Below are positions 6,333-31,001 of a stretch of 64,000 nt of DNA, one piece after another; within the stretch, counting starts at the first letter, position 1; every line of letters starts with the position of its first letter. The position numbers and the translations under genes are program-made. The DNA comes from Actinomycetes bacterium (lineage in GTDB: Bacteria > Actinomycetota > CALGFH01). The notes under the pieces were generated by a model, which worked only from the letters and a program-made list of their open reading frames with translations, did not search any database and was not told the DNA's origin. The stretch is from assembly GCA_035275125.1 (NCBI GenBank), contig DATENJ010000477.1, positions 106 to 64,105 of the forward strand, written 5' to 3'.

Positions 6333-6355
6333 CAGCCGCCGGCAAGGAGCATGGC

Positions 6356-6840
6356 GTGGTGTGGACGAAGGACACGACACCGGCGACATACGAAACCGAC
6401 CCGGGTGCCGGTATGGCCATCAGACTGCTCGGCCACCTGCGCCACAGCCGCTATCTGTTCTACTTCGCGGTGGTGTCGACCCTGCTCGCGGTGGCCCTGG
6501 TGATGCTGTACGGGACCGTGCAGATCGTCGTCTTCGTGGTCGACCTCCTCCGCCACGGCAGCATCGACAACCGGTGGGGCGCTGAGCTGCGTCTCACGGT
6601 CATCGAGGTGGTGGACCTGTTCCTGATCGGCACGGTGCTGGTCTGGTCGTCACGGTCCTCTCGGTGGTGTTCCGTGGCCAGATCGTGACCTGGGACGGAC
6701 AGCGCGATCTCCTTGGGTTCGGGGTCGCGATCGGCGCCGTCATCGCCGGCCTGACCTTCTTCCTCCGGCACGAGCCGCGCAGGCCCCCATGGCAGGACCA
6801 GGAGCAGGAGCAACCGCCGACCCGGCCAACGCCGCCGTGA
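6356..6840 (+). CDS. small integral membrane protein (YqhA/UPF0114-like?) with apparent 1-nt frameshift near 6645
   Basis: The hydrophobic ORF 6356-6688 continues in the +2 frame as LVVTVLSVVFRGQIVTWDGQRDLLGFGVAIGAVIAGLTFFLRHEP through 6840; a single missing C in gtc(c)tggtc would fuse them. Confidence 0.5.
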
Positions 6841-6926
6841 CGGGGACCAGCATTTTCGGCTGACGTTCACCTGCCCGCCCCGCCACGGGCAGGTCGTCGC
6901 CCTCAAGGCCGACGATCATCCGGCTC

Positions 6927-8501
6927 GTGATCACTCTGGAGCGGCGCATCGTTCGGGGGCCCGCCCGGGAAGGCGGATACCGCCGGTTGGGTGTGGTCGG
7001 CGGGGAACCGCGGCAGCTACGCACCGAGCTGGTCGGGTCTGGCCGCCGGCCAGGAGAGCGGCGGCCGCTGCTGGCCTTCGCGCACCTGTCCGATCTGCAC
7101 GTGATGGACCACCAGTCGCCCGGTCGGGTCGAGCTCCTGGACCGCTACGCCGATCCTGACTCGCCGATCCGCGACCGAGTCGGCATGGTCGGTTCCTACC
7201 GGCCCCAGGAGCTGTTCACCTACCACGTGGTCGAGGCGATGGTGCAGGCCATCAACGCCGTCGGCGCCTCGCCGGCCGCCGCCAGGCCGCTGGATTTCGC
7301 GGTGGTGACCGGGGATGCGACCGACAACTGCCAGTACAACGAGCTGCGCGCCTACATCGACCTGCTCGACGGTGGGTCGATGGTGGTCCCGGACTCCGGC
7401 GACGTCAGCTGCTACCAAGGGGTCGCGGATTCGGTGGCGCACGACCACCGCTACTGGCATCCGCACGGCGGCCGGCCCGACCTGCCGCGAACTCGCTGGG
7501 GGCTGCCCTGTGTCCCCGACGGTCTGGACATGGCTCGCGTCCCCTTCACGGCCACCGGGCTGCGGCTGCCCTGGTATGCGGTCTACGGGAACCACGATAA
7601 CCAGGTGAAAGGTACCGTTCCCGCCAACCAGGCGCTGGTGGACACACTGGTCGGCGAACGCAAGCCCATCACCCCCCCTGACCGGTTGGATGCCCTGGAG
7701 GTGCTGCGCCAACTCGATCTCGGCGACCACTCCGCGATGGCTGCCGTGGCGGTCGGCGCCCGCACCCGGACCGTGGCGCCGGATCCTCGTCGGCGGCCGG
7801 TGGCCAGGGCCGAGCATGTCCTGGAGCATTTCCGGACTCCTGGTTCGCCGGTCGGTCACGGATTCACCCGACCCGACGACGGCGACGACCGGGCCTGGTA
7901 CGCGTTCGATCACGACGCCATCCGCTGTGTCGTGCTCGACACGGTGAACGAACACGGCGGCTGGCAGGGCTCCATCGGCGCCGACCAGCTCGCCTGGCTG
8001 ACCGGCGAGTTGGTGGACGCCGCCGACCGGGTCGTCGTCCTGTTCAGCCACCACCCGCTGGAATCGCTGGTCAATGCCCGCCGCCCGCCAGGGACACCAA
8101 GGCGAGTCCTCGGCCCGGAGCTGCGCGAGCTGCTCCTGGCCCACCGGTGCGTCGCGCTGTGGGTGAACGGCCATTCCCACCGCCATCGGATCAGCCCGGT
8201 CGCCGGCGGCAACGGCACCGGCGGGTTCTGGCAGGTCACCACGGCCTCGCATATCGACTGGCCGCAGCAGAGCCGGATCATCGAACTGGTCGAGGACGGC
8301 TCCGGGCAGCTCAGCATCGACACCACCGTGCTGGACAGCGCCGCTCCCGCCGGTCACGACGGCGGCGACAGTCCGCTGTCGTTGGCGGCCCTGTCCCGGG
8401 AGATCGCCGCCAACCACTGGCAGGCTCGCGATCCCGCCGGCCGGATCAGGGTCGGACCAGGCAGCCCGCTCGACCGCAACACCACGCTGCTGGTCCCCTG
8501 A
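6927..8501 (+). CDS. metallophosphoesterase, TIGR03767-like (calcineurin-like phosphoesterase)
   Basis: AHLSDLH, GDATDN, and GNHD/GHSH phosphoesterase motifs in a ~520-aa actinobacterial-type architecture. Confidence 0.75.
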
Positions 8502-16134: not shown

Positions 16135-16503
16135 GTGCCTGCCGTGGCCGAAGGCGAGCTTGCCGAGATTGTCAGGAGCTATTACCGGCTGGTGGACACG
16201 AGCGACTTCACTCGAATGCTCGAGTTGTTCGCCGATGACGCTGTCTACCGGCGGCCGGGCTATGCGCCGCTCGTTGGCAAGCCGGCCCTGACCGAGTTCT
16301 ACCTCGGCGTCCGCGTTATCGAGTCCGGCCGACACGAACTGTCCAGCATCCTGGTGCAGGATCGCTCGGCCGCCGTCGAGGGCCAGTTCGCCGGCCAACT
16401 GAAGGACGGCACCAGCGTCCGCCTACAGTTCGCCGACTTCTTCCGGTTCCATGCCGGCCGGATCGTCGAGCGAAGCACCTATTTCGACGCCCCCGCGGTC
16501 TAG
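16135..16503 (+). CDS. SnoaL-like / NTF2-fold protein
   Basis: 122-aa ORF with the ketosteroid-isomerase-like pattern (YYRLVDTSDFTRMLELFADDAVY). Confidence 0.6.
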   Translation: MPAVAEGELAEIVRSYYRLVDTSDFTRMLELFADDAVYRRPGYAPLVGKPALTEFYLGVRVIESGRHELSSILVQDRSAAVEGQFAGQLKDGTSVRLQFADFFRFHAGRIVERSTYFDAPAV

Positions 16504-17297
16504 CGCGAGAACGCCGCTGGCGTTGGCCTTCCCCCGCCGGCTTCCCCAGTGCACGAGGCACGGATCGCGTCGACCATGCCCTGGAGGGCCTCCAGGAGCA
16601 GCCAGATGTCGCCGGAGCAGACGATCATGTCGGCTCCGGACTCGAACAGCTCGACCGCCTCGTCGACCGAGGAAGGCACCCGGCCGTAGGACTTGCCGTT
16701 GGCGAGGCAGGCCCGCCGTATCCGGTCGGCCGCCTCCAGGAAGGTCGGATGGGCGAACTCGCCGGGGATCCCCAGCGAAGAGCTGAGGTCGTTGTGGCCC
16801 AGCCAGAGCCCATCGACGCCGTCGATGGCGGCGATCGCCTCGACGTCGTCGAGGCCGTCGCGGTTCTCGATGGTGGCGAACAAGGTGGTCCGGCGGTTGG
16901 CATCGGCGAGCTTCTGCCTGGCCGGTCCGGGACGGTAGTCGTCATGAGCGATCTGCAGCGCGACGCCTCGGTGGCCCTCGGGCGGGTACTTCATCCAGTC
17001 CAGGATCTGGCTGGCCTCCTGGGCGTTGCGCACGTGGGGCAGGAGGAGGGCCTCGGCCCCCAGGTCACAAGCCATCGCCACATCGTGGTAGGTCTTGGAC
17101 GCGGGCCGGATCACGACGGGCAGCTGCGCTGCCTCCATGTAGCGCAGCACGTTGTTCACGGTCTCGAAGGTGAAGCCCGCGTGCTCCATATCGAAAAAGA
17201 CGAAGTCGCAACCCGCGGCCTTGAGGATTTTGCCGATCCCGGGCGATACGAACTCCATGACACAGGTGCCGACTTTGACCTCTCGTGATCTCGCCAT
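16500..17297 (-). CDS. HpcH/HpaI family aldolase (2,4-dihydroxyhept-2-enedioate aldolase-like)
   Basis: C-terminal 265 aa of the long minus-strand ORF match the HpcH/HpaI fold (GCDFVFFDMEHAGF, ALLLPHV, GVDGLWLGHNDL). The upstream 600 aa of that ORF are antisense to the SBP gene and were rejected. Confidence 0.75.
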   Translation of the reverse strand: MARSREVKVGTCVMEFVSPGIGKILKAAGCDFVFFDMEHAGFTFETVNNVLRYMEAAQLPVVIRPASKTYHDVAMACDLGAEALLLPHVRNAQEASQILDWMKYPPEGHRGVALQIAHDDYRPGPARQKLADANRRTTLFATIENRDGLDDVEAIAAIDGVDGLWLGHNDLSSSLGIPGEFAHPTFLEAADRIRRACLANGKSYGRVPSSVDEAVELFESGADMIVCSGDIWLLLEALQGMVDAIRASCTGEAGGGRPTPAAFSR

Positions 17298-17398
17298 GTC
17301 CTTGAATCCCAAAGCCGGCCTCCTTGGTACGTCGTCAATTTCTATACGACGTCTGCGACCTAGCGTGACGTAGGGATTTGATGCTTTCGGATCGAGCG

Positions 17399-17450
17399 TC
17401 GTTAGAGTATTGACAACTATCTGCCCGCAGCCTACCCTACTGCCGCGCAG
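17399..17450 (+). promoter_or_regulatory. putative sigma-70-type promoter for SBP1 (TTGACA-N17-TACCCT) embedded in the conserved motif CGTTAGAG-N2-TTGACA-ACTATC
   Basis: -35 TTGACA with 17-nt spacer to TAcccT; AT-richer than surroundings; ~70 nt upstream of the ATG at 17523. Confidence 0.4.
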
Positions 17451-17522
17451 GAGTGCAGTCAAGGCACTTGACGGTCCCCTCCCAGCCGCGGGCCGGGTTT
17501 GGCGATTCGGAGAGGTGACCAG

Positions 17523-19226
17523 ATGCTGTCGAGGAGATCCGTCGTCACCATCCTCATCGTGGCGCTGGCACTGGTCGCGGCCGGCTGCGGCAACAGGAAC
17601 GATGAGCAGCAGACAGCTTCCCGGACGCGACTCACGATCCTGGCCGAGGACGTTCCCACCGGCCTCGACTACGACGGGCCCGCGGTGGGCATCCCCACGA
17701 GTCAGACCGGGATGGTCAACCTCATGGAAGGCTTGCTGACCTACGCCCCGGCCGGCCAGAACGACGAGGGCGTGCGGCTGCTCGACTTCACCAAGTACGA
17801 GGGTCGGCTGGCGGAGTCCTGGGACTATGACCCGGCCACCCTCACCTGGACCTTCCACCTGCGCCAAGGGGTGGTCGGCTGCGAGGGGGCCAGCTTCAAC
17901 GCCGACGACGTGCTCTACACCTTTGCCCGGGCCAAGTCGGTGAGCGGCCCGATCCCGCTCGGCTGGTTCGAGGCCAACACCGCCGGGATCGACGGGTTCA
18001 CCCCCGACGTGATCACTGACGAGTCCAAGCGCGAGCTCGGTGACGAGGTCACCAAGGTGGACGACTACACCGTCAAGATCCGCCAGTCCCGGCCGCCGAG
18101 CCAGCTGTTCCTGCCCGTGCTCGCCCAGTGGGCCGGCGTCCTCATCTTCGACAAGGAGACGATGGAGGCCAACAAGACCGACAAGGACCCCTGGAGCCAC
18201 GAGTACACCAACAACACCAACGCCCCCAGCTTCGGCCCCTACTGCCTCAAGACCTGGGAGAAGGGCAGCCAGTTCGTGGTCACCGCGAACCCCCAGTACT
18301 ACCGGGGCGCGCCCGCGGTCTCCGAAATCGTCTACCGCAAGGTCCCCGAGAGCGCCAACCGGGTGGCCGCGCTGCGCAGCGGTGACGCGGACCTGGTCGA
18401 GCACCTGACGCCCAAGGAGTTCCACGCGCTCCGCGACGCCGACGGGATCGAGGTCTCCGGGGTGATCGGCAACGAGACGCTCCTCATCCACCTGAACTGG
18501 AAGACCAAGCCGTTCGACGACGAGCGCGTGCGGCAGGCGTTCGCCCACGCCATCCCCTACGACGAGATCATCGCCAACGGGTACGCGGGCCAGGCCAAGA
18601 AGTGGGAGAGCCAGATCTCCTCCACCTACCCCGGCTACCACCGTCCCGCCAAGCAGTACGGCACCGACCCCGCCGCCGCACGCGAGCTGCTGGCCCAGGC
18701 GGGGTTCCCGGACGGCCGTGGCCTTGACCGGTTCGGGGACGCCTTGCGGCTGACCTACACCGCCGAGAAGCAGTCCACCCTCGGCCCCATCGCGACCGTC
18801 ATCCAGGCCTCGCTGCGCGAGGTCGGGTTCCCGGTCGAGCTCGACCCGATCCCCCAGACGCAGTTCGCCGACCGCCTCTACACCAAGCACGACCTCCCGC
18901 TGGCGCTGGACGACATCGAGAAGGCGGTGCCGGTGGACGGCGGCTACGCGCTGCTGATCGCCCACACCACCTACGGCTGCTGCGCCAACAACGGCAACTT
19001 CGCCGACCCCCGCGTCGACGAGCTGGTCAAGGCGGCCAACGTCGAGACCGACCAGGCCAAGCGGAGCACCCTGCTGGCGCAGGCGCAGGACATCCTGATG
19101 GAGCGGCTCAGCCTCCTGCCGATCGTCGAGTACAAGACCCAGTGGGCCTACCGGGACGACGTGCAGGGCATCACCTGGCATCCGGAGAACTCCCTCAGGT
19201 GGTCCGACCTTCGCGCCGGCGGCTAG
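17523..19226 (+). CDS. ABC transporter substrate-binding lipoprotein, family 5 (peptide/opine/nickel type) - SBP1
   Basis: Signal peptide and lipobox LAAGCG; SBP_bac_5 architecture. About 70 % aa identity to SBP2 (25452-27158), with a 143-bp near-identical tract. Confidence 0.85.
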   Translation: MLSRRSVVTILIVALALVAAGCGNRNDEQQTASRTRLTILAEDVPTGLDYDGPAVGIPTSQTGMVNLMEGLLTYAPAGQNDEGVRLLDFTKYEGRLAESWDYDPATLTWTFHLRQGVVGCEGASFNADDVLYTFARAKSVSGPIPLGWFEANTAGIDGFTPDVITDESKRELGDEVTKVDDYTVKIRQSRPPSQLFLPVLAQWAGVLIFDKETMEANKTDKDPWSHEYTNNTNAPSFGPYCLKTWEKGSQFVVTANPQYYRGAPAVSEIVYRKVPESANRVAALRSGDADLVEHLTPKEFHALRDADGIEVSGVIGNETLLIHLNWKTKPFDDERVRQAFAHAIPYDEIIANGYAGQAKKWESQISSTYPGYHRPAKQYGTDPAAARELLAQAGFPDGRGLDRFGDALRLTYTAEKQSTLGPIATVIQASLREVGFPVELDPIPQTQFADRLYTKHDLPLALDDIEKAVPVDGGYALLIAHTTYGCCANNGNFADPRVDELVKAANVETDQAKRSTLLAQAQDILMERLSLLPIVEYKTQWAYRDDVQGITWHPENSLRWSDLRAGG

Positions 19227-19272
19227 GACCGCCACCGCACCGGGCCGGCGACCGCCCCGGAACGGGCCCGCG

Positions 19273-20676
19273 ATGACCGAGCTGGCCGACCTCGACGGCG
19301 CCGGGCTCCTGGCCGCCTACCGGGCCGGCCAGGCCTCGCCGGTCGAGGCCGTCGCCTCCTGCCTCGAGCGGATCGAACGGCTCGAAGCCCAGGTCAACGC
19401 GGTGGTGACACTCCGCGCCGAGACCTGCCTCGAACAGGCACAGGCCTCCCTGCGGCGCTGGCGCGAGGGCGCGCCGCGGCCGCTGGAGGGGCTGCCGGTC
19501 GGGCTCAAGGACATCATCTTCACCGCGGGCGTGCGCACCACCGGCGGCTCGGCCATCTATGGCGACCTGGTCCCGGCGGCGGACGCGGCCGTGGTGGAAC
19601 GGCTGACCGCCGCCGGCGCGCTGGTACTGGCCAAGCTGCAGACCTACGAGTTCGCCATGGGCGACAACAGCCACTACGGCCCCACCCGCAACCCATGGCG
19701 GCTGGACCACACGCCGGGTGGCTCCTCGACCGGCTCGGGCGCGGCGCTGGCCGCGCGCGAGCTGCCTCTGGCCGTCGGCACCGACACCGGCGGGTCGATC
19801 CGGGTGCCGGCCAGCTTCTGCGGGGTGGTCGGCCTCAAGCCGACCCTCGGCCTGGTCAGCCGTCGGGGCGTCATGCTGCAGTCGTGGACGCTCGACCACG
19901 TGGGGCCGATGGCCCGCTCGGTCGCCGACGCCGCGCGCATGCTGACCTCGATGGCCGGCCACGACCCGCTGGACCCGGCCTCGATCGGCGGCCCCGCCGG
20001 CAGCTACCAGCAGGCGCTGGCCGCCGGCGTGCGAGGCATGCGCATCGGCGTACCGACGGACTGGTTCTTCGACGTCGTGGACCCCGAGGTCGAGGCGGCC
20101 ACCAGGCAGGCGCTGGCCGTTCTCGCCGAGCAGGGCGCCAGCATCGTGGAGGTGTCGCTGCCGACCGCTCGACTGTCCGACGTCATCGGCTGGACGATCA
20201 TGTACGCCGAGTACGCCGCGTTGCACGAGGACACCTTCGACCGCCTCGAGGACTACAGCGCTCCCCTGTCGCAGGAGATCCTGGTCAGCTCCCAGTTCGT
20301 CAGCGCGCTGGACTACGCCCGGTCGCTACGCGCCATGCACCTCGTCCAGCGCGACTTCGAGTCCGCCTTCGAGCAGGTCCAGGCGCTGGTCGTTCCCGGC
20401 ATGGTCGCGGTCGCGCCGCGCCTGGACGACATGCGCTTCCGGATCGGTGCCCGCGACTACAAGTGGGGCGAGCTGGTGGCCCGCACGACGATGATCTTCA
20501 ACCTCGCCGGTATCCCCGCCCTCTCGCTCCCCGCCGGGCTGCACAGCTCCGGGCTGCCCATGGGCATCCAGGTGGCCGCGCGGCCGTTCGACGAGGCCAC
20601 CTGCTTCCAGATCGGCCAGGCCTATGAGCAGGCCACCGGCCACCACCTGCTGGCACCTCCGCTGCTGTCGGCCTGA
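19273..20676 (+). CDS. amidase-signature family amidase (paralogue of 28546-29970)
   Basis: AS signature GGSSTGSGAALAA, GTDTGGSIRVPAS, and catalytic Lys in GLKDI. Confidence 0.85.
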   Translation: MTELADLDGAGLLAAYRAGQASPVEAVASCLERIERLEAQVNAVVTLRAETCLEQAQASLRRWREGAPRPLEGLPVGLKDIIFTAGVRTTGGSAIYGDLVPAADAAVVERLTAAGALVLAKLQTYEFAMGDNSHYGPTRNPWRLDHTPGGSSTGSGAALAARELPLAVGTDTGGSIRVPASFCGVVGLKPTLGLVSRRGVMLQSWTLDHVGPMARSVADAARMLTSMAGHDPLDPASIGGPAGSYQQALAAGVRGMRIGVPTDWFFDVVDPEVEAATRQALAVLAEQGASIVEVSLPTARLSDVIGWTIMYAEYAALHEDTFDRLEDYSAPLSQEILVSSQFVSALDYARSLRAMHLVQRDFESAFEQVQALVVPGMVAVAPRLDDMRFRIGARDYKWGELVARTTMIFNLAGIPALSLPAGLHSSGLPMGIQVAARPFDEATCFQIGQAYEQATGHHLLAPPLLSA

Positions 20677-20682
20677 GCGCGG

Positions 20683-21672
20683 TCAGGGCAGCAGGTAGCG
20701 GCGCTCGATGGCGGCGCCGACGGTGTATTTGGGGTCGACGACGTTCCCGAGGCGCACGCGGCCGCAGAGGCTGAGCAGCATGTAGGCGTCCCAGCGGTCG
20801 AAGCCGTAGTCGGTCACCATCCACCGGACCAGTTCCCGGTAGGCGATGCGGCAGGCATCCTCCAGCGGGCGGGCGCTCCCCACCGTCATGATCAGCCCGT
20901 CGGTCTCCAGGCGGGGCCACTCGATCGCCCAGCCCTTGACCAGGTCGACCCCGATGGTCGTGACCGTGGCGAACTCCACCGCAACCCCGCAGACCTCGCC
21001 GTCGCCCTGGCAGGCGTGCGCGTCGCCGATGAACAGCCGACCACCCGGGGCCCGCACCGGCAGGTAGGTGACGCTGCCAGGGCCGATGTCGGGCAGGTCC
21101 ATGTTGCCGCCGTGGCTGTCAGGGGTCAGGGTGTTGACCGAGTCGATCTCCGGTGAGCAGCTCAGTGTTCCGATGTGGGGGCGGTACGGGAGCGTGATGC
21201 GGGGGCTCCAATGGACCCACTGCTCGTCGACGTCGACCTTGCGGACGATCTCCGGCAGTGGCTCGTTGAGGGTGGCCGTGAGGGCCGTGCCTGTCAGGGC
21301 CCCGAACTCGGGGATCATGCAGCAGGTCCCTCTGGGCTGTGGCCCCCGAGGGACGATGGACTCGATGTGGACCGCGACGGCGTCGCCCGCCTCCGCTCCC
21401 TCGACGAGGATGGGGCCGTTCTGCGGGTTGGTGAAGGGCAGGCGGACCTTCTCGGTCGGCTTGTCCTGTTCGCTGCGGATGGCCCCGTCGAAGGCGTCCC
21501 TGGTGGTCACGACCACCCGGTCCCCCGGCCTGACCCGCAGGACCGGCTCGGAGTAGGGCCCGATCGTGTAGTGGTAGGTCCCCTGCCGCTCCTCGGTGAG
21601 CTCGTGGGTCTCGGGCTCGCTCCCGCGTCCCTCGCCCCGCCGCGCCGCCACGGCCTCGTCGGGCCATTCCAT
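20683..21672 (-). CDS. acetamidase/formamidase family (FmdA/AmdA) amidohydrolase
   Basis: FmdA_AmdA family similarity across the whole length; start MEWPDE with RBS GGAGGTGA; last gene of the ABC operon. Confidence 0.8.
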   Translation of the reverse strand: MEWPDEAVAARRGEGRGSEPETHELTEERQGTYHYTIGPYSEPVLRVRPGDRVVVTTRDAFDGAIRSEQDKPTEKVRLPFTNPQNGPILVEGAEAGDAVAVHIESIVPRGPQPRGTCCMIPEFGALTGTALTATLNEPLPEIVRKVDVDEQWVHWSPRITLPYRPHIGTLSCSPEIDSVNTLTPDSHGGNMDLPDIGPGSVTYLPVRAPGGRLFIGDAHACQGDGEVCGVAVEFATVTTIGVDLVKGWAIEWPRLETDGLIMTVGSARPLEDACRIAYRELVRWMVTDYGFDRWDAYMLLSLCGRVRLGNVVDPKYTVGAAIERRYLLP

Positions 21673-21674
21673 GG

Positions 21675-22658
21675 TCACCTCCCAACCTCGCGCAGCTTGT
21701 TGGTCCGGTCGTCCACCCTGACGCAGGCGACCGTATGACCCTCGGACACAGCGCGCGGCTCGGGCCGCTGCGGCAGGCAGTCGGCGCGGACAAGCGGGCA
21801 CCTGGAGGAGAACAGGCACCCGGGGGCGAGCTCGATGGAGCTGGGGATCTCGCCCTCAAGGACCCAGCGGTCGAGGACCGCGGCGGGGTCGGCGGGCAGC
21901 GACGCCGACAGCAGCGCCTGGGTGTAGGGGTGCTGGGGGTCGTGGAAGACCTGGTCGACGGGACCGACCTCCACGAAGGTGCCCCGGTACATGACCGCCA
22001 CCCGGTCGCAGTGGGCGCCGATGGTGAACAGGTCGTGGGAGATCAACAGGAAGGTCAGACCGCGCTCGCGCTTGATCTGGTCGAGCAGCGCCAGGATGCC
22101 GGCTCGGATCGACAGGTCCAGCGAGGAGGTCGGCTCGTCCAGCACCAGGAATCCGGGGTCGGTGGCGATGGCTCTGGCGATCGCGACCCGCTGCGCCTCG
22201 CCGCCGCTCAGCTCCCTGGGAAAGCGGCGCACGTGGCCGGGGTTGAGCTGGACCAGGCCGAGCAGCTCCCGGGCCCGGGCCGTCCGGCCCGCGCGGTCAA
22301 GGCGGGTGTGCAGGCGCAGCGGCTCCTCCAGGATCGCGCCCACCCGCATCCTGGGGTTCAGGGAATCGAAGGGGTCCTGGAAGACGACCTGGGTCCGGGC
22401 CCGCCACGAGCGCAGGTCGCTGCCGGACAGCCCGGCGACGTCGACTCCGTCGAACCGGATCCCGCCACTGGTCGGCTCGACCAGGCGCAGCAGGCACCTG
22501 CCGACGGTGGACTTGCCCGAGCCGCTCTCGCCGACCAGCCCCAGGGTCTCACCCGGCTCGATGCGGAAGGAGACGCCGTTGACCGCGTGGACGAGACCCT
22601 TGCCTCGGCCCGCCGGATAGTGCTTGACGAGGTTGTCGACCACCAGCGCCACGCTCAC
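21675..22658 (-). CDS. ABC transporter ATP-binding protein (oligo/dipeptide DppF/OppF type)
   Basis: Walker A GESGSGKST, LSGGEAQR signature, Walker B LVLDEPTS, and C-terminal oligopeptide-ABC domain; GTGA overlap with the upstream ATPase. Confidence 0.9.
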   Translation of the reverse strand: MSVALVVDNLVKHYPAGRGKGLVHAVNGVSFRIEPGETLGLVGESGSGKSTVGRCLLRLVEPTSGGIRFDGVDVAGLSGSDLRSWRARTQVVFQDPFDSLNPRMRVGAILEEPLRLHTRLDRAGRTARARELLGLVQLNPGHVRRFPRELSGGEAQRVAIARAIATDPGFLVLDEPTSSLDLSIRAGILALLDQIKRERGLTFLLISHDLFTIGAHCDRVAVMYRGTFVEVGPVDQVFHDPQHPYTQALLSASLPADPAAVLDRWVLEGEIPSSIELAPGCLFSSRCPLVRADCLPQRPEPRAVSEGHTVACVRVDDRTNKLREVGR

Positions 22659-23506
22659 CGGCGGCTCCCGGAGTCCATCTGCTGCCCGCGCCCAGGGGCT
22701 GAGGCGATCAGCCGCCGGCTGTACGGATGCTCCGGCTCGGCGAACACCCGGCGCACCGGGCCCTTCTCCACCACGCGCCCGGCCAGCATGATCTCCACCC
22801 GGTCGCAGTAGTGGGCGACGATGCCGAGGTCGTGGGTGACGAACAGGACCGAGGACCCGGTCTGGCGCACCTTGGCCCGCAGCAGGTCCAGGATCTGGGC
22901 CTGGACGGTGACGTCCAGGCCGGTGGTGGGCTCGTCGGCCACCAGCAGCCGGGGCTCGTTGATGGTGGCGATGGCGATCAGGGCCCGCTGGGCCATGCCG
23001 CCGCTGAGCTGGTGGGCGTAGGCCCGGGCGCGGCGCTGGGCGTCTGGGATGCCCATGCGCTCCAGCGCCGCAACCGCCTGCCGCCAGGCCTGCCGCCGGT
23101 CCACCCGGTGGTGGGCCCGGTAGGCGTGCGCGACCTGGTCGCCGATGCGGACCAGCGGGTTGAGCGCGGCGCGCGGGTTCTGGACGACCAGGCCGATCTG
23201 GCCGCCGCGGATCTGCCGCAGCCGCTCCTCCGAGGCACCCAGGACGTCTTCGCCGAGGAACCGCACCTCGCCGCCGTCGATCCTGCCCGGCGCCCGGACC
23301 AGGCCAAGGAGGGCGAGCGCGGCCGTCGACTTCCCGGACCCGCTCTCACCGACCAGGCCGACGAACTCACCCTCGCGGATGGTGAGCGCGAACTCCACGA
23401 CGGCGCTGACGTCGCCGGCGTCCAGTGGGTAGGTGACGTTGAGCCCGCTCGCCTCCAGCACGACCGGCCGTGGCGTCCCGACGCCGTCGTCGGGACTATC
23501 GGCCAT
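22655..23506 (-). CDS. ABC transporter ATP-binding protein (DppD/OppD type)
   Basis: GESGSGKST, LSGGMAQR, LVADEPTTGLD. Confidence 0.9.
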   Translation of the reverse strand: MADSPDDGVGTPRPVVLEASGLNVTYPLDAGDVSAVVEFALTIREGEFVGLVGESGSGKSTAALALLGLVRAPGRIDGGEVRFLGEDVLGASEERLRQIRGGQIGLVVQNPRAALNPLVRIGDQVAHAYRAHHRVDRRQAWRQAVAALERMGIPDAQRRARAYAHQLSGGMAQRALIAIATINEPRLLVADEPTTGLDVTVQAQILDLLRAKVRQTGSSVLFVTHDLGIVAHYCDRVEIMLAGRVVEKGPVRRVFAEPEHPYSRRLIASAPGRGQQMDSGSRR

Positions 23507-24413
23507 AGCGGTCCTCCAGCAGGTTGCCGAACACGGCGTACCCGAAGACCGTCACCGAGATGGCGATGCCGGGGAAGACCGACGGCCACCACTCTCCGAG
23601 GACGATGAGGCTGGCACCGGTTGCGATCATCCCGCCCCATTCCGGCGTCGGGGGCCGCACCCCGGCGCCGATGAAGCTGAGCCCGGCCGTCAGCAGGATC
23701 GCCCAGCCAACCGTCACCGAAGCCTGGATCAGCGACGGCGCCATCGAGTTGCGCAGGACGTGCTTGAGCGCGATCACGATCTCGCGGTGGCCGACGGCGC
23801 GGGCCGCCTCCACGTAGGTCCGCGAGCGCTGGGTGACCACCTGGCTGCGGGTCAGCCGCAGGAAGATCGGCGTGAACAGCACAGCCAGCGTGAGCACGAT
23901 GTTCAGCAGGCTGCGCCCGGTCAGCACGACCAGGATCATGGCCAGGATGAAGACCGGGAACGACTGGAAGACGTCGGAGATGCGGGTGAGGGCCTCCGAG
24001 CTGCCGGTGCGGTAGTAGCCGGCGAGCAGGCCGAGGAACGTCCCGAGCGCCAGCGACAGCGCGGTGGCGGCGAGCCCCACGACCACGTCGACGCGGGGCG
24101 CGCAGACCACTCGGGAGAAGACGTCCAAGCCGGCGGAGTCGGTCCCGAACCAGTGGACCGGCTGGTCCAGTTGGCCGCGGACGGTCGCCAGCAGCAGCCC
24201 CGGGACCCTCGGCAGGCTCGGCGGGGGCTCCGAGACCCGGCCGGTCGGCACCTCCGGGTCGTAGGGGGCCACGACGCCGCCGAACAGGGCCAGCAGGATC
24301 GAGGCGCCCACGATGCAGGTGCCCACAACGGTGAGGGGGTTGTGCCGGACGACCCGCAGCCAGGGTCGCGGCCGGCCGACGTCGGGTGGGAGCTGCGGCT
24401 GCATCGCCGTCAT
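23496..24413 (-). CDS. ABC transporter permease (DppC/OppC type)
   Basis: BPD_transp_1 family with EAA-like loop; start MTAMQ overlaps the upstream permease stop (ATGA). Confidence 0.85.
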   Translation of the reverse strand: MTAMQPQLPPDVGRPRPWLRVVRHNPLTVVGTCIVGASILLALFGGVVAPYDPEVPTGRVSEPPPSLPRVPGLLLATVRGQLDQPVHWFGTDSAGLDVFSRVVCAPRVDVVVGLAATALSLALGTFLGLLAGYYRTGSSEALTRISDVFQSFPVFILAMILVVLTGRSLLNIVLTLAVLFTPIFLRLTRSQVVTQRSRTYVEAARAVGHREIVIALKHVLRNSMAPSLIQASVTVGWAILLTAGLSFIGAGVRPPTPEWGGMIATGASLIVLGEWWPSVFPGIAISVTVFGYAVFGNLLEDRYGR

Positions 24414-25441
24414 TGCGCCACTCGCGGATCCACCAGCGCGTGGATGACGTCGATGGCCAGCAGGGTCAGCAGGGACCCGGCCGTGATGACGAGGATGACC
24501 CCCTGGATGGCGGGGTAGTCCAACGAGAGGACCGACCGCAGCGCGTACTGGCCCAGGCCGCCGAGGGAGAAGACCTGCTCGATCAGGACGGCGCCGCCGA
24601 GCATGTAGCCGTAGAGGATGCCGATCAGCGTCAGCGAGGGCGCGAAGGCGTTGCGGAAGGTGTACATGGCGACGCGGAACGGCGACAGGCCGCAGCTGCG
24701 CGCGTACAGGATGTGGTCCGACGCCAGCACCGCCAGCATGCTCTGGCGGACCATCTTGATGATCGGGCCGGAGAGCACGAACGCGAGCGTCAGCACCGGC
24801 AGCATCAGGTGATGGAGCGCCTCGACGAAGACCGAGCCTCGCCCGGCCAGCAGCGCGTCCAGGGTCAGGAAGCCGGTCACCGTTTCGGGTGGGCTGGTCA
24901 GCGGGTCCAGGCGGCCGAGCGGCGCCGGCGCCAGGCCCCATTCAGAGAAGAACAGGAAGACGAACATCAGCCCCCACCAGAACTCCGGCTGGGCGCCGGC
25001 GAACAGGCTGTAGGTGAACGCGGCCCGGTCCACGAGCCCTCGCGGGCGGAGCGCCGCGACCATGCCGATCGGGACCCCGACCAGGACCGCGACCAGGAAG
25101 CTGTAGGTGATCAGCTCGAGGGTCACGGGCAGGAACTTGCCAATCTCCTGGGCCACCGGCGAGCCGGTCACCCACGAGCTGCCCAGGTCACCTTGCAGGA
25201 TGCCGGATCCCTCGGCCTCGCGGTCCAGCCCCAGGTAGATCCCGAGCTGCCTGGGGATCGACTTGTCCAGATCCAGCGAGGCGCGCGCGTGGGCGATCGC
25301 CTCGGGCGTGGCGTTGAGGCCTACCAGCCGCCCCACCGGGTCGGCGGGGAGGAGCCTGATGAGGAAGAACACGAGCAGGGTGATGCCAGCGAGCTGAACC
25401 ACCGCCACCAGCAGACGGCGCAGCACGTAGGTGGTCAACAT
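24410..25441 (-). CDS. ABC transporter permease (DppB/OppB type)
   Basis: N-terminal MLTTYVLRRLL plus six-TM permease core. Confidence 0.9.
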   Translation of the reverse strand: MLTTYVLRRLLVAVVQLAGITLLVFFLIRLLPADPVGRLVGLNATPEAIAHARASLDLDKSIPRQLGIYLGLDREAEGSGILQGDLGSSWVTGSPVAQEIGKFLPVTLELITYSFLVAVLVGVPIGMVAALRPRGLVDRAAFTYSLFAGAQPEFWWGLMFVFLFFSEWGLAPAPLGRLDPLTSPPETVTGFLTLDALLAGRGSVFVEALHHLMLPVLTLAFVLSGPIIKMVRQSMLAVLASDHILYARSCGLSPFRVAMYTFRNAFAPSLTLIGILYGYMLGGAVLIEQVFSLGGLGQYALRSVLSLDYPAIQGVILVITAGSLLTLLAIDVIHALVDPRVAQ

Positions 25442-25451
25442 GCCCTGGAAT

Positions 25452-27158
25452 CTAGCTCTCCGCGGGGCTCAGCTCGAACCACCTCAGGGCGTTCTCCGGG
25501 TGCCAGGTGAGCCCGCTGATCCGCTCCGAGAAGGCCCACTGCGTCTTGCGCTCGACGATGGGCACCCAGTTCAGGTCCTTCTGGAGGATCTCCTGGGCCT
25601 CGGCGAGCATCTGCGCCCGCTTCTCCTGATCGGTCTCGACGTTGGCCGCGGCGGTCAGCTCGTCGACCCTGGCGTTGGAGTAGTTGGTGTTGTTGGCCGG
25701 GGCGCCGGCCTTGGAGGAGATCTGGGCGTTGAAGAGCGCGTAGCCGGCGTCGATCAGGACCGGCTTCTCCTGGTCGTCCAGCGCGAAGGGAAGGTCCTTC
25801 TTGACGAACAGCCGGTCCACGAACTGGCTGTTGGGCACGGGGTTGAGCTGCGCCGGGATGCCCGCCTCACGCAGCGCCGCCTGGACCATGGTGGCGATCG
25901 GCCCCAGCGTCGACTCCTTCTCGGCGACATAGGTGAGCTGGAAGGAGCCGCCGAACCGGTCCAGGCCACGGCCCTCGGGGTAGCCGGCCTCGGCGAGCAG
26001 CGCCTTGGCACGGGCCGGATCGGAGGCGTACTGGGTGGCCGGCTTCACGTACCCGGGGAAGGAGGAGGGGACGTGGCCCTCCCATTTCTTCGCCTGGTTG
26101 AAGTAGCCGTCGTTGACGATCGGGTCGTACGGGATGAGGGTGGCGATCGCCTGGCGGACCTTGGGGTTGTCGAAGGGCTTGGATTTGAAGTTCATGTGCA
26201 GGAAGAGGTTCTCGTTGCCGATCACGCCGCCGACCTTCAGCCCTTGTGCCTGCTTGGCCGCCTCGATCTCCTTGGGGGTGAGGTTCTCGGCGACCTGCGC
26301 GGCTCCCGACCTGAGCGCCGCCAGACGGTTGGCGCTCTCGGGCACCTTGCGGTAGACGATCCGCGAGATGGGTGGAGCGCCGCGGTAGTACCTGGGGTTG
26401 GCCTTGACCACGAACTCCGATCCCTTGTCCCATCTCTCCAGGCAGTAGGGGCCGAATCCGGGAAGGTTGACGGTGTCGTTGTACTTGTGGCTCCAGGGGT
26501 CGTCCGGCGTGGCGTGCTTCTCCATCGTCTCCTTGTCCAGGATCCCGGTGGCGAACGTCGCCATCACGGGCAGGAACAGCTGGCTCGGTGCCGACTGTCG
26601 GACCTTGACCGTGTAGTCGTCCACCTTGGTGACCTCGTCACCGAGCTCGCGCTTGGACTCGTCAGTGATCACGTCGGGGGTGAACGCGTCGACCGCGGCC
26701 ACGTTGAACTCGAACCAGGAGACTGCGATCGCCCCGCTCACCGACTTGGCCCGGGCAAAGGTATAGAGCACGTCGTCGGCGTTGAAGCTGGCCCCCTCGC
26801 AGCCGACCACCCCCTGGCGCAGGTGGAAGGTCCAGGTGAGGGTGGCCGGGTCGTAGTCCCAGGACTCCGCCAGCCGCCCTTCGAACTTCTTGAAGTCCAG
26901 CAGCTGCACGCCGTCCTCGTTGACCTCCCCTCGGGAATTGTCCACGAGATTCTCAACCAGATTGACAATCCCCTCCTGGGCGGAAGGGGCGGGGACCGAG
27001 GGCCCGTCATAGTCGAGGCCGGCCGGGATGTCATCCGACAAGATCGTGACCTGCGCGACCTCTTGGTTCTCGGAGTCGGCGGAATCGCCTTGCTCACACC
27101 CGGCGACCGAGACGAGCATCGCCAGGACGGCCGCCCAAAGACCATACCTCCGGATCAT
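25452..27158 (-). CDS. ABC transporter substrate-binding lipoprotein, family 5 - SBP2
   Basis: Signal peptide and lipobox VAGCEQ; RBS GAGGAAGGGA; first gene of the operon SBP2-B-C-D-F-formamidase. Confidence 0.9.
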   Translation of the reverse strand: MIRRYGLWAAVLAMLVSVAGCEQGDSADSENQEVAQVTILSDDIPAGLDYDGPSVPAPSAQEGIVNLVENLVDNSRGEVNEDGVQLLDFKKFEGRLAESWDYDPATLTWTFHLRQGVVGCEGASFNADDVLYTFARAKSVSGAIAVSWFEFNVAAVDAFTPDVITDESKRELGDEVTKVDDYTVKVRQSAPSQLFLPVMATFATGILDKETMEKHATPDDPWSHKYNDTVNLPGFGPYCLERWDKGSEFVVKANPRYYRGAPPISRIVYRKVPESANRLAALRSGAAQVAENLTPKEIEAAKQAQGLKVGGVIGNENLFLHMNFKSKPFDNPKVRQAIATLIPYDPIVNDGYFNQAKKWEGHVPSSFPGYVKPATQYASDPARAKALLAEAGYPEGRGLDRFGGSFQLTYVAEKESTLGPIATMVQAALREAGIPAQLNPVPNSQFVDRLFVKKDLPFALDDQEKPVLIDAGYALFNAQISSKAGAPANNTNYSNARVDELTAAANVETDQEKRAQMLAEAQEILQKDLNWVPIVERKTQWAFSERISGLTWHPENALRWFELSPAES

Positions 27159-27437
27159 GCCCGTTCCCTTCCTCGGGGGAGATCGACCAGTTGCCCAGTG
27201 CTGATCGCCGTCAACTCTGATGCTTGCTCGGTTCGTCGTCAAGTCCCTAACTACGCTTCTGGCAACGGCCCTCCAACGATGCTGGGGCAGCCGCCTCGAA
27301 GCAGTCGTGACCTGCAGGTTCTGCGAGTGGTAGGCTGGCGCCGGTCGTCGGCCGGGCGCTGTCGCTAAGTACCTTGTGACGGTGTCGCGGTCGACGGTCG
27401 GACGCCGTCTGGCAGCGCACCGGGAGCGATAGATCGC

Positions 27438-28286
27438 ATGGCAGAGGACGTTGTGCTCGAGCAACTCCAGCGCCTCGGGATGACGAGCTACGAGGCGAAG
27501 GCGTATGTGGCCCTGATCGCCGCCGGGGTGCCGCTAAATGGCTACGAGGTCGCCAAGCGATCGAAGGTCCCTCGGAGCACGGTCTACGAGACGCTTGGAA
27601 AGCTGGTCGGGCGGGGTGCCGCCTTCGAGGTCAACGTCAACGGGGCGACCGCGTACCTCCCCCTGCCGGTCGAGTCCCTGCTCACGGGCCTGGAGACCGA
27701 GTTCGAGACGGCCATCCGTCGGCTCAAGGCGGCGCTGCCGGCGGTCATCTCCCCACCCAAAGCGCAGGTCGTTCACCACCTGAATGGCGCGGAGATCGTC
27801 CTCGACCGCGCCACAACGATGATCGAGAACGCCACCGAGGACCTGTACCTGGCGATGTGGGACGAGGAGACCCGCAAGCTGGCCCCAGCGATCCAGGCCG
27901 CCGAGGACCGGCGGCTCGCGGTCTTCCTGCTGGTGTTCGGCGGTGAGAACGGCAAGATCCCGCATGCGTTCCCGCACCGCCTGCTGACTGCCCCGGACGC
28001 CCTGGAGCCGGTCAGCCGCCGGCTCCTGCTCGTTGTGGCTGACCGCGCCAGCGTCCTCGTCGGCAGCGCGGTCGGCGACGACATGTGGGCGATGCACAGC
28101 GAGGACCCGGCGGTCAGCCTGGTCGCGATCGAGTACGTCAGGCACGACATCGCGCTGCAGCAGCTCGCGGGGCGCATAGGCGTCGAGGAGATCCAGAAGA
28201 TCTGGCAGACCGACCCGGAGCTGCAGCGCCTGGCCGCACAGCGCGGCCTTCCCGGATCGGGCCCCACCAGGGGGAATCGGCCGTAG
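27438..28286 (+). CDS. TrmB-family transcriptional regulator
   Basis: N-terminal TrmB winged HTH (GMTSYEAKAYVALIAAGVPLNGYEVAKRSKVPRSTVYETL); divergent from the ABC operon. Confidence 0.8.
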   Translation: MAEDVVLEQLQRLGMTSYEAKAYVALIAAGVPLNGYEVAKRSKVPRSTVYETLGKLVGRGAAFEVNVNGATAYLPLPVESLLTGLETEFETAIRRLKAALPAVISPPKAQVVHHLNGAEIVLDRATTMIENATEDLYLAMWDEETRKLAPAIQAAEDRRLAVFLLVFGGENGKIPHAFPHRLLTAPDALEPVSRRLLLVVADRASVLVGSAVGDDMWAMHSEDPAVSLVAIEYVRHDIALQQLAGRIGVEEIQKIWQTDPELQRLAAQRGLPGSGPTRGNRP

Positions 28287-28306
28287 CGTCCCTTCTGAAC
28301 CCGGAG

Positions 28307-28549
28307 GTGGTCCCAACGAGCGAGCCTACCGTCGAAACCCTCGAAGTTCTCGCCCGGGAACTGGGTATCTCGGTCGCCCGGGAGCGACTCGCACGGGCCG
28401 CCGAGGCGCATGCCCGCCTGCGCCCGATGCTGCGGCAGTTCCGGGAGGTGAAGTTCGACTACCTGGACGGGGTTCAGCCCGCGCATGCCAGGCGCTGGAT
28501 CGAGAACGGAGGGCGCTCGGTTCCACACGCACCGCAAGCGCCGTCGTGA
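28307..28549 (+). CDS. small AtzG-like (DUF4089-like) protein, putative partner of the downstream amidase; start codon uncertain
   Basis: ~80-aa helical ORF (LEVLARELGISVARERLARAAEAHARLRPMLRQFREVKFDYLDGVQPAHARRW). Its TGA stop overlaps the amidase GTG start (GTGA). Confidence 0.5.
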   Translation: MVPTSEPTVETLEVLARELGISVARERLARAAEAHARLRPMLRQFREVKFDYLDGVQPAHARRWIENGGRSVPHAPQAPS

Positions 28550-29970
28550 CCGGGCTCGCCGACCTCGGAGCCGGCGAGCTGCTGGAGCTCTACCGCCGGC
28601 GGGAGGCCTCGCCTGAGGAGGTCGCCGAGGCCTGTGCCGCGCGGATCGAGCAGCTGGAGCCAGCGCTCAACGCCGTCACGACGCGCTGCCCTGAGGTCTG
28701 GTCCAGGCAGGCGGCGGAGGCAACCCGCCGGTGGCGCAGCGGCGAGGCCCGGCCTCTGGAGGGTGTCCCCTACGGCGTCAAGGACCTGATCCACACCGCC
28801 GGCGTGCGCACCACGGGCGGGTCCCGCCGTTACCGTGACTACGTTCCCGAGACAGGCGCCGAGGCCGTCGACCGGCTCGAGCGGGCTGGCGGCGTGATGA
28901 TGGCCAAGCTCCACACGTTCGAGTTCGCCAGGGGCGATGACAGCTTCCTCGGGCCCACGCGCAACCCCTGGGACCTGGAGCGGACCGCCGGCGCCTCCTC
29001 CACTGGCGCGGGCGCGGTCCTGGCGGCTCGGCAGCTGCCGCTGGCGCTGGCGACCGACACCGGCGGCTCCATCCGGGTCCCCGCCACCTTCTGCGGCGTC
29101 ACCGGCCTGAAGCCAACCTTCGGGCTCGTTCCCCGGACCGGCGTGATGCCCCAATCCTGGACCTTGGACCACGTCGGGCCGATGGGCCGCTCGGTCGCCG
29201 ACGTCGCCCGAATGCTGACCGCGATCGCCGGCTACGACCCGGCGGACCCCGAGTCGATCCGGACACCGCGCCGCGACTTCGTCGAGGGACTCGACCGAGG
29301 GGTCGCCGGCCTCCGCCTTGGCATCCCTCGCGACTGGTTCTTCGACGTCATCGACCCGGAGGCACTGCAAGCGACGCAACGGGCCGCCTCCCTGCTGGCC
29401 GGGCAGGGCGCGGACGTGGTCGAGGTCGACCTTCCCCACGCCCACCTCTCCGACGTCATCGGTGCCCTCATCATCTACGCGGAGTTCGCCGCCCTCCACA
29501 CCGACGACCTCGACCGACTGGAAGAGTTCGGGACGCGCTGGACACAGCAGGTACTGGTGGACTCCCACTTCGTCGGCGCCGCCGACTACCTCAGGGCCCT
29601 GCGGGCGCGGCACCTGATCCAGCGCGACCTCGAGCAGGCCTTCGAGCAGGCGGACGTGCTCCTGGTTCCTGGCACGGTGGGGGTGGCGCCTCGACTGGAG
29701 GACCTCGCCTTCTCGGTCGGGGACGCCGTCCGGGAATGGGACCAGCACGTGGCACGGATGACACTGCTGTTCAACCTTGCCGGCGTGCCCGCCCTGGCGC
29801 TCCCGGCGGGCTTCAGTAGCGGTGGGCTGCCATTGGGGATCCAGGTCGCCGCCCGACCGTTCGACGAGGCGACCTGCCTCCGGGTAGGCCACACCCTGCA
29901 GCGATGCACCACCTACCACCTGGCGGTTCCGCCCCTCGTCTCGGGCCAGGACGGTATGCGGTCGGGCTAG
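28546..29970 (+). CDS. amidase-signature family amidase (AtzE-like 1-carboxybiuret hydrolase-type architecture)
   Basis: GASSTGAGAVLAA, GTDTGGSIRVPAT, and GVKDLI; ~60 % identical to the amidase at 19273-20676. Confidence 0.85.
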   Translation: MTGLADLGAGELLELYRRREASPEEVAEACAARIEQLEPALNAVTTRCPEVWSRQAAEATRRWRSGEARPLEGVPYGVKDLIHTAGVRTTGGSRRYRDYVPETGAEAVDRLERAGGVMMAKLHTFEFARGDDSFLGPTRNPWDLERTAGASSTGAGAVLAARQLPLALATDTGGSIRVPATFCGVTGLKPTFGLVPRTGVMPQSWTLDHVGPMGRSVADVARMLTAIAGYDPADPESIRTPRRDFVEGLDRGVAGLRLGIPRDWFFDVIDPEALQATQRAASLLAGQGADVVEVDLPHAHLSDVIGALIIYAEFAALHTDDLDRLEEFGTRWTQQVLVDSHFVGAADYLRALRARHLIQRDLEQAFEQADVLLVPGTVGVAPRLEDLAFSVGDAVREWDQHVARMTLLFNLAGVPALALPAGFSSGGLPLGIQVAARPFDEATCLRVGHTLQRCTTYHLAVPPLVSGQDGMRSG

Positions 29971-31001
29971 ATGAGGTCGCCTCTGGTTCGCGGGTCGATG
30001 AGGAACTGCAGGACGTCCATGAACACATAGACCGTGAGCGCGAAGATGGCCACGAACATGACGCAGCCGGCGACCGCCAGGTAGTCCGAGTTCACCACCG
30101 ACTCGACCGCGAACTGGCCCAGCCCGCCCCAGGAGAAGACCGTCTCGACCAGCACTGCCGCGCTGATCAGGTAGCCGTACACCAGGCCGGACAGGGTGAT
30201 CACCGGTAGCAGTGCGTTCCGCAGGGCGCCACGGTTGATCCGCCGGACCGGCATCCCGCAGGCGCGCGCGTACCGCACATAGTCCGAGTCCAGCGCCTCC
30301 ATGGTCTGGGTCCGGGTCATCTTCAGCAATGGCGCGGCGTAGACGAACGCGAGCGTGACCCCGGGCAGGATCAGGTGCCCGAAGGCGGAGCGGAACGCGG
30401 CCCAGTTCCCCGTGAGCACCGAGTCCAGGGTGTAGACCCCGGTGATCGTGGTGGGCGCCCCGATCAGCACGTCGATGCGACCGAGGGGAGCCGGCGCGAT
30501 CCCGAGGGTGACGAAGAACACCAGGATCAGCATCAGGCCCCACCAGAACTCGGGCAGCGCCCCCGCGACCATCCCGTAGACGAACGGGATGCGCTTGAAC
30601 AGGCGCCCGCGCGACACCGCCGAGAGGATGCCGAGCGGGACGGCGACCGCGATGGCGATGACGAACGCGAAGGTGATGAGCTCGAAGGTGGCCGTGAAAC
30701 GGCGCAGCACCTCGTCCAGCACCGGCTTGCTGGTGAAGTACGAGCGTCCGAGGTCCCCTTGCAGCACGTTGCCGAGGTACTTGACGTAGCGGACGTGGAT
30801 CGGCTGGTCGAGGCCGAGGCTCTGCACTAGGGCCGCTCTGGTCTCGTCGGAGGCGAGCCCGCCCGCCAGCAGGTAGGTGGGGTCGCCGGGGAGAAGCTGG
30901 ATCAGGACGAAGACGATCGTCACGATGCCCCAGACCTGGACCAGCAGGATGCCGAGGCGGCGCAGCACGAAGCGCAGCTTCCAGCCTATCGGGACGACCA
31001 C
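29967..31001 (-). CDS. ABC transporter permease (DppB type) - distal gene of the third ABC operon
   Basis: GTG start with GGGAGGTGG upstream; typical DppB N-terminus KLRFVLRRLGILLVQ. Confidence 0.8.
   Translation of the reverse strand: MVVPIGWKLRFVLRRLGILLVQVWGIVTIVFVLIQLLPGDPTYLLAGGLASDETRAALVQSLGLDQPIHVRYVKYLGNVLQGDLGRSYFTSKPVLDEVLRRFTATFELITFAFVIAIAVAVPLGILSAVSRGRLFKRIPFVYGMVAGALPEFWWGLMLILVFFVTLGIAPAPLGRIDVLIGAPTTITGVYTLDSVLTGNWAAFRSAFGHLILPGVTLAFVYAAPLLKMTRTQTMEALDSDYVRYARACGMPVRRINRGALRNALLPVITLSGLVYGYLISAAVLVETVFSWGGLGQFAVESVVNSDYLAVAGCVMFVAIFALTVYVFMDVLQFLIDPRTRGDLI

Follow-up and report, generated by a model that had tools for sequence, protein, structure and literature searches.

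The window, as the whole stretch of DNA analyzed here is called, comprises 64,000 nucleotides of contig DATENJ010000477.1 (assembly GCA_035275125.1), which belongs to a metagenome-assembled genome (MAG) of an uncultured organism labeled 'Actinomycetes bacterium'. It carries two paralogous genes for family-5 solute-binding lipoproteins, SBP1 (17523-19226, plus strand) and SBP2 (25452-27158, minus strand), which are inverted relative to each other and lie ~8.5 kb apart. Over their whole length the two are 62% identical in protein and 72% identical in DNA, and the subject of this report is a short segment in their 5' third that contains nearly identical tracts. The Pfam domain SBP_bac_5 is found in both proteins, at 1e-75 (255.6 bits) in SBP1 and at 1.5e-74 (251.8 bits) in SBP2, with a gathering cut-off of 32.4. 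The closest relatives of both in the PDB are the DppA structures 5f1q and 1dpp, which places them in the DppA/OppA type of the family-5 (cluster C) binding proteins. Both genes, like their orthologs, are full-length open reading frames of 567-568 codons with lipoprotein-type signals ending in AGC (the lipobox of SBP1 is LVAAGC). The SBP1 protein is an exact match to the NCBI entry HKQ01463.1 (a MAG third-party annotation (TPA) record, 'Actinomycetes bacterium'). SBP2 is deposited at NCBI as HKQ01470.1, a protein of 497 amino acids with a shorter start; the 568-codon start at 27158 supplies a lipoprotein signal (MIRRYG...VAGC) that is kept in all SBP2 orthologs, and the deposited start is probably set too far downstream.

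SBP1 is an orphan with no permease genes of its own and only an amidase gene (19273-20676, plus strand) downstream. SBP2 heads a minus-strand operon with the order SBP2, permease, permease, ATPase, ATPase, and FmdA-like gene, and the transcription units of SBP1 and SBP2 converge. The segment between the two genes (19227-25451) therefore holds, by Pfam, the amidase gene on the plus strand and the FmdA-like gene, two ATP-binding cassette (ABC) ATPase genes, and two permease genes on the minus strand.

Two near-identical tracts around a divergent island

A sliding-window profile of identity along the two genes gives a bounded peak, as is expected of gene conversion. Upstream of 17760 the identity of SBP1 and SBP2 is down to ~58%. 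It stands at 80% in a 5' shoulder at 17760-17804 on the plus strand (9 mismatches in 45 nt; partner 26877-26921), and tract A follows, in which the 143 nt at 17805-17947 of SBP1 (plus strand) pair with the reverse complement of 26734-26876 of SBP2 (minus strand) with three mismatches. These mismatches, at 17828, 17867, and 17918, are all synonymous, and both copies encode RLAESW...AKSVSG. The next 48 nt form an island with 15 mismatches (69% identity), which encodes PIPLGWFEANTAGIDG in SBP1 (17948-17995, plus strand) and AIAVSWFEFNVAAVDA in SBP2 (26686-26733, minus strand). Beyond the island lies tract B, at 17996-18124 (plus strand) in SBP1 and 26560-26685 (minus strand; inverted repeats I2 and I6) in SBP2, which begins with a perfect match of 75 nt, the longest exact run of the gene pair (17996-18070 equal to 26685-26611), and continues with scattered mismatches. 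From 18071 to ~18124 the identity is 79-88%, with a 3-nt indel at 18090-18092 and an exact run of 24 nt at 18096-18119. Exact runs between the paralogs of the window range from 23 to 75 nt.

A preliminary description, made from the window alone, had recognized the 143-nt tract and its three synonymous mismatches, and the tract is real. Its SBP1 coordinates, 17804-17946, were one base out of register, however: paired literally with 26734-26876 they give 30% identity, and position 17804 is itself a mismatch. The fall to roughly 70-75% identity that was described on both flanks is accurate in part: the 5' side shows 80% and then ~58%, and on the 3' side the drop to 69% lasts just 48 nt and is followed by the perfect 75-nt match. 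The exchanged region is a mosaic of ~320-360 bp, composed of two tracts around the 48-nt island, and not a single 143-bp tract.

Synonymous sites set the segment apart from the rest of the gene pair. Where SBP1 and SBP2 have the same residue, they use the same codon at 83 of 91 positions inside the segment and at 164 of 251 outside it (Fisher test, 6e-7). The same-codon fraction is 0.91 in tract A and 0.90 in tract B, both in excess of the ~0.63 expected from codon usage (binomial test, 1e-5 and 2e-4, respectively), and 0.57-0.72 elsewhere. Since the fraction outside the segment equals the codon-usage expectation, no trace of common ancestry is left at the synonymous sites there; SBP1 and SBP2 diverged long ago, and their synonymous sites outside the segment are no more alike than codon usage predicts. 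The Nei-Gojobori synonymous divergence (dS) of the pair is 0.12 in tract A, 0.17 in tract B, 0.54 in the rest of the gene, and 1.1 at the 5' end. Clustering of the concordant sites is significant in a permutation test of the Sawyer/GENECONV type on all polymorphic sites, in which none of 10,000 shuffles reached the run observed in the window pair. Two control pairs of paralogs in the same window have no comparable tract: the maximal identity over 90 nt is 0.84 for the amidases and 0.74 for the permeases, with exact runs of at most 18 and 14 nt, respectively.

Relationships of the segment across genomes

Related sequences were obtained from several sources. A protein search gave the SBP1 orthologs P0001-P0003, at 87-91% identity, the SBP2 orthologs P0005-P0007, and also more distant relatives. 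Contigs from six Joint Genome Institute (JGI) samples (L011-L016) are near-identical to each other and ~91% identical to the window, and represent a single population. Five of them contain both genes in the order and orientation of the window, the sixth, L014, stopping just past SBP1; the layout of the SBP2 operon is the same in L011-L016. Extra SBP2 orthologs are provided by L017, L018, and L020. A further contig, L019, comes from a separate ENA assembly (its name begins with k141) and is 99.92% identical to window positions 22190-37158, with 12 differences in 15 kb. For P0001 and P0003 (both from sample 3300067032), P0004, P0009, and P0123, gene maps were available, and these were compared at the protein level only. 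A scan of a genome collection returned homologs of ~50% identity or less, mostly alphaproteobacterial, and no close relative. A clade-specific degenerate pattern, which matches the window and L011-L018, had no match in a metagenome collection.

Within the tracts the paralogs group by genome, and outside them they group by orthology. This was analyzed in a set of four sequences, namely W1 and W2, the SBP1 and SBP2 of the window, and L011_1 and L011_2, their respective counterparts in L011. Seven informative sites of tract A support grouping by genome and none support orthology, whereas the 5' part and the remainder of the gene together have 292 for orthology and seven for genome (Fisher test for the contrast, 7e-11). 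The counts for orthology and for genome are 12 and 0 in the island and 6 and 0 in the 5' shoulder at 17760-17804, which is unconverted since the split from the L011 lineage. Neighbor-joining trees agree with the site counts. For tracts A and B together, W1, W2, and the SBP2 of L019 form a clade with a bootstrap value of 99.6%, and the L011 paralogs form another with 72%; grouping by genome receives 97% for tract A and 98% for 17996-18070. Trees of the island, the 5' part, and the remaining gene place the SBP1 orthologs together at 100%.

Divergence at synonymous sites follows the same pattern. In tract A the dS of W1 and W2 is 0.12, compared with 0.41 (SBP1) and 0.33 (SBP2) for the ortholog pairs with L011. 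The opposite holds over the rest of the gene, with 0.54 for W1 and W2 and 0.21 (SBP1) and 0.26 (SBP2) for the orthologs. The polymorphic-site permutation is also significant for the L011 pair (P = 4e-4), and it is not significant for pairs of paralogs taken from different genomes. No exact run of 50 nt or more joins sequences of different genomes, the maximum there being 35 nt; within genomes, the window has runs of 75 and 50 nt and L011, at shifted positions, has runs of 66 and 52 nt. W1 and W2 share the private derived codons GAG, AGC, CTC, TTT, ACT, and GGT, three of which change the amino acid, whereas TTT, ACT, and GGT are synonymous. L011_1 and L011_2 share their own private derived codons, CAT-CTC, GTG, and GGC. 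These private derived sites, together with the exact runs of the L011 paralogs, indicate that the L011 lineage was converted independently, after the split.

Two further comparisons extend the pattern. The SBP2 tract of the window, including its SBP1-type residues, recurs in L019. On a 19,168-nt contig from another JGI sample (3300043331) that carries both P0123 and P0131, these two proteins share 94% identity in tract A and 82% in tract B, versus 47% and 59% in their N- and C-terminal parts. In the tracts at 17805-17947 and at 17996 to ~18120, the two copies of a genome resemble each other more than either resembles its ortholog, and the derived substitutions that they share include synonymous and non-synonymous ones. 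The same within-genome similarity, partly at other positions, is present in a second lineage. By its grouping by genome, its low dS, and the clustering of all polymorphic sites, the SBP pair is very probably a case of ectopic gene conversion or concerted evolution.

Direction, recurrence, and competing explanations

Reciprocity is not readable from end-state sequences, and the polarity of the exchanges rests on the states of the orthologs. W2 carries the SBP1-type Ala in FARAKS and the SBP1-type GTG, and W1 carries the SBP2-type DYDPA and Asn. Read against the orthologs, the direction is from SBP1 to SBP2 at 17913-17947 and around 18009, and from SBP2 to SBP1 at 17823-17900, and these polarities point to transfers both ways. 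The duplication itself is old: the parts outside the segment place P0004 with SBP1 and P0009 with SBP2, which dates the duplication to before this deeper split. A two-residue insertion in tract B (DESKRE) is common to SBP1 and SBP2 of the clade of the window and is absent from P0004, P0009, and the outgroups, which points to an older conversion at the same place that spread the two-codon insertion to both paralogs. At the other end of the time scale, the SBP2 of L019 has the SBP1 state TAT (of a TAT/TAC codon) at one of the three mismatch sites of tract A, leaving only two mismatches to SBP1, which hints that exchange may still be under way within the species. In the alignment of L019 10001-11707 with window 25452-27158, the TAT difference may reflect a very recent conversion or a tract boundary that differs.

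Taken together, the 5' third of two old, inverted SBP paralogs has very probably been homogenized by repeated short-patch ectopic gene conversion without crossover. The preliminary description had proposed one recent, non-reciprocal event between the inverted paralogs; recombination between them is supported, while the single event gives way to recurrent and apparently bidirectional exchange, independent in at least two lineages and with older events too. The process may feed itself. The segment spans the most conserved motif of the family, which would supply identity runs long enough for the recombination machinery, and each conversion would renew these runs, of which exact runs of 50-75 nt are present now. 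The minimum of identity that is commonly cited for such recombination is ~20-30 bp, a length that the 50-75-nt runs in the window exceed. The island would persist as selection removes variants that are converted there or, alternatively, the conversion patches may stop at its dense mismatches.

Several points weigh against the conversion reading or limit it. DNA for both paralogs comes from just one lineage beyond that of the window (L011-L016), the other lineages being represented by protein only. The strictest permutation, a longest-run test on the 166 silent sites at which the amino acid is invariant in all sequences, was not significant (P = 0.52), with few sites, low power, and three mismatches that break the run; the conversion reading rests instead on the same-codon fraction, dS, and the site patterns. 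Tract A is 69-78% identical even to distant homologs, as opposed to 57-59% for the C-terminal part, and is thus the most conserved part of the family, so that part of its amino-acid identity reflects ordinary constraint. The sequence of the window comes from metagenome assembly, and its SBP1 copy is known from this single assembly. Finally, dependence on RecA, the length of the conversion patches, and selection on the island are inferred.

The rival that survives best, although it is very improbable, is that the tracts were imported from other strains by allelic recombination, through transformation, conjugation, or transduction, and were not exchanged between the two loci. The SBP2 orthologs P0133 and P0005 and the SBP1 ortholog P0001 indeed show mosaic tract states across samples, and one of the few differences between L019 and the window, which are 99.92% identical, falls on a tract site. 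Allelic import, however, does not make the paralogs of one genome each other's closest relatives, with private derived sites in two lineages, and a transfer from paralog to paralog would still be needed, merely moved to another cell.

Purifying selection on a highly conserved motif, joined by the strong codon bias of a high-GC genome, would produce similarity with no recombination at all, and the conservation of tract A across the family speaks for such an effect, as does the fact that codon bias alone makes ~63% of the codons for identical residues the same. The same-codon fractions of 0.90-0.91 are nevertheless well over this value. Constraint also predicts that orthologs are closest, yet the paralogs group by genome and share derived changes that include the synonymous TTT, ACT, and GGT, and the dS of orthologs in tract A (0.33-0.41) lies above that of the rest of the gene and not below it. 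We therefore hold constraint to be extremely improbable as the whole explanation. The preliminary description had judged constraint unlikely at synonymous sites; constraint does contribute to the amino-acid identity, and it cannot account for the synonymous identity or for the shared derived states.

There is likewise hardly any probability in an assembly artifact, in which the metagenome assembler switched between paralogs at short shared k-mers and pasted the segment from one into the other. The contig is from a MAG, exact runs of 23-75 nt can be bridged by small k-mers, and the exact SBP1 protein is found on a single contig. A simple paste is at odds with the three sites at which the copies of tract A differ, and the SBP2 tract with its SBP1-type residues is reproduced in the separate assembly L019. 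The same mosaic, with other lineage-specific sites, is present in contigs of six other samples (L011-L016) and, at the protein level, on the P0123/P0131 contig. The slight probability that is left concerns the SBP1 copy. Least probable of all is an element conserved as DNA in both genes (a structured RNA, an antisense transcript, or a protein-binding site), which would fit the conserved synonymous sites and the long antisense reading frame at 16500-19235 over SBP1, though such frames are usual in high-GC DNA, and which is contradicted by an Rfam scan of the whole window without a match, by the raised dS of orthologs in tract A, where constraint should hold between orthologs too, and by a sequence that changes in step within genomes and is not fixed.

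A crossover in the tracts, in contrast to conversion without crossover, would invert the ~8.7 kb between them, together with the 3' two-thirds of both SBP genes, and would swap their 5' ends. Such an inversion, also raised in the preliminary description, is possible in principle given the exact runs of 50 and 75 nt but is not seen in any related contig: L011-L013, L015, L016, and the P0123/P0131 contig have the orientation of the window, and the partial contigs of P0001, L014, and L019 are consistent with it. No recombinase is found among the genes between or beside the repeats (amidase, FmdA-like, ABC ATPases, permeases, TrmB, HpcH, SnoaL, and NHL), and the N- and C-terminal parts of each SBP gene have matching phylogenies and the same paralog assignment. 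An inversion switch was rejected on the absence of both a recombinase gene at the locus and an inverted arrangement among the assembled contigs.

The island, comparable systems, and the surroundings of the locus

The 16 residues of the island differ between PIPLGWFEANTAGIDG and AIAVSWFEFNVAAVDA at nine positions and are near-invariant within each ortholog group. The SBP1-type island is found in all eight proteins of the SBP1 clade that cover it, and the SBP2-type island in all ten such proteins of the SBP2 clade. This conservation suggests that the island residues may distinguish the functions of the two proteins. When aligned to DppA-type proteins (~25-30% identity), the whole segment lies in the N-lobe, with gaps exactly at the island. 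The ligand-clamp residues of Escherichia coli DppA, R383 and D436, are located in the C-lobe (PMC12136057), and the corresponding positions fall far downstream of the exchanged segment. This is a loose argument that exchange may be tolerated where the two proteins need not differ. An attempt to place the tracts and the island on the transporter docking surface gave no reliable mapping, since the paper on E. coli DppABCDF holds no list of N-lobe contacts and the alignment has low identity and gaps at the island.

It is conceivable, though unlikely, that confining conversion to this segment is adaptive, with a shared N-lobe surface for docking or activation kept in step and the 16-residue island distinguishing the proteins, for example in the choice of ligand. 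As SBP1 lacks permease genes and lies beside the transporter operon of SBP2, the two proteins may share one pair of permeases as docking partner. This docking idea is speculation; if it is true, conversion would keep the common interface in step between the orphan and the binding protein of the operon itself. In a rarer variant of this unlikely reading, an occasional crossover in the 50-75-nt inverted runs would flip the ~8.7 kb, swap promoters and signal peptides between the two binding-protein bodies, and act as a switch.

Several known systems resemble the SBP pair in part. The enterobacterial genes tufA and tufB reportedly undergo concerted evolution through RecA-dependent gene conversion, as Abdulkarim and Hughes are said to have described in 1996 and Santoyo and Romero to have reviewed in 2005. 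As in the SBP pair, the tuf paralogs are oppositely oriented on one chromosome, the copies group by genome, and the intervening DNA need not invert; exchange between the tuf genes is non-reciprocal, as it may be between the SBP genes. The tuf copies, however, do the same job and are homogenized over approximately their whole length, whereas in the SBP pair ~0.3 kb of 1.7 kb is homogenized, the rest is ~70% identical, and a 48-nt gene-specific island is present.

In the primate red and green opsin genes, the sites for spectral tuning resist homogenization. Long-lasting segmental gene conversion bounded by selection has been described more generally in duplicated genes, for example in mammalian gene pairs (PMC2720389). 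These eukaryotic cases share with the SBP pair stretches in which paralogs are closer than orthologs, persistence across speciation, and sites that distinguish function and stay different. They differ in that they are mostly tandem duplicates subject to meiotic conversion, whereas the SBP pair is bacterial and inverted, and selection on its island is deduced from the conservation pattern alone.

Two programmed systems are similar in outline. Segmental conversion serves antigenic variation at Neisseria pilE/pilS, Borrelia vlsE, and Treponema tprK, where, as here, short internal segments of a gene for a surface protein or lipoprotein are replaced from paralogous sequence elsewhere in the genome. 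The donors in those systems are silent partial cassettes that act one way and diversify a variable region, unlike the SBP genes, which are complete, carry their own signal peptides, apparently exchange in both directions, and exchange their most conserved part while the variable island is excluded. Antigenic variation of the cassette type was rejected as an explanation, both partners being complete genes and the exchanged part being the conserved one. Inversion switches that shuffle genes through inverted repeats inside paralogous genes are represented by phase-variable hsdS loci and shufflons. The near-identical inverted repeats in two paralogous genes that flank several kb are a common feature, and a crossover would swap gene halves in the same manner, but the SBP locus has neither a recombinase gene nor a contig in the inverted arrangement, and the N- and C-terminal parts of its genes agree in phylogeny.

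Gene conversion between paralogs is well established in bacteria, and the mechanism is therefore not new. The value of the SBP pair is that of a clean natural example in an uncultured actinomycete, which is sub-genic, independently recurrent in sister lineages, and skirts a 48-nt island. Trees and orthology calls based on this part of SBP_bac_5 genes will mislead, and the island offers candidate residues for what sets the two binding proteins apart. Short-read assembly is at risk from the exact inverted runs of 50-75 nt, which could also serve as a substrate for inversion.

The locus contains a second pair of paralogs, since an amidase gene stands beside each SBP gene (19273-20676 and 28546-29970, both plus strand); the two amidases are 60% identical in protein and 68% in DNA. 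In the more distant lineage of P0004, the SBP1 side of the locus has two tandem SBP genes (578 and 560 amino acids) and two amidase genes, and it seems that modules of an orphan binding protein and an amidase have multiplied here. The window has just one further SBP_bac_5 gene (41453-43000, minus strand), which is 27% identical to SBP1; a third copy of the tract was sought there and is absent. An antisense open frame of 911 codons (16500-19235, minus strand) covers the whole of SBP1. Its 3' part (~16500-17330) probably holds an HpcH/HpaI-family gene, as is found at the same position in relatives, and the remainder is most likely spurious, as is usual in high-GC DNA.

In L014, an IS21-type element with IstA and IstB genes (5217-7267) lies upstream of the NHL gene in this one sample. 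No IS21-type element adjoins the NHL gene of L011 and L012 within the flanks of these contigs, which end just a few hundred bases upstream of the gene. On the other side of the locus, past a gene for a TrmB-family regulator (27438-28286) and the second amidase gene, are genes for hydantoinases A and B, an aminotransferase, and a second ABC set. This further cluster spans window positions ~28500-37158, corresponding to L019 1-8613, and the gene content suggests that the neighborhood handles amide or hydantoin-type compounds and not peptides.

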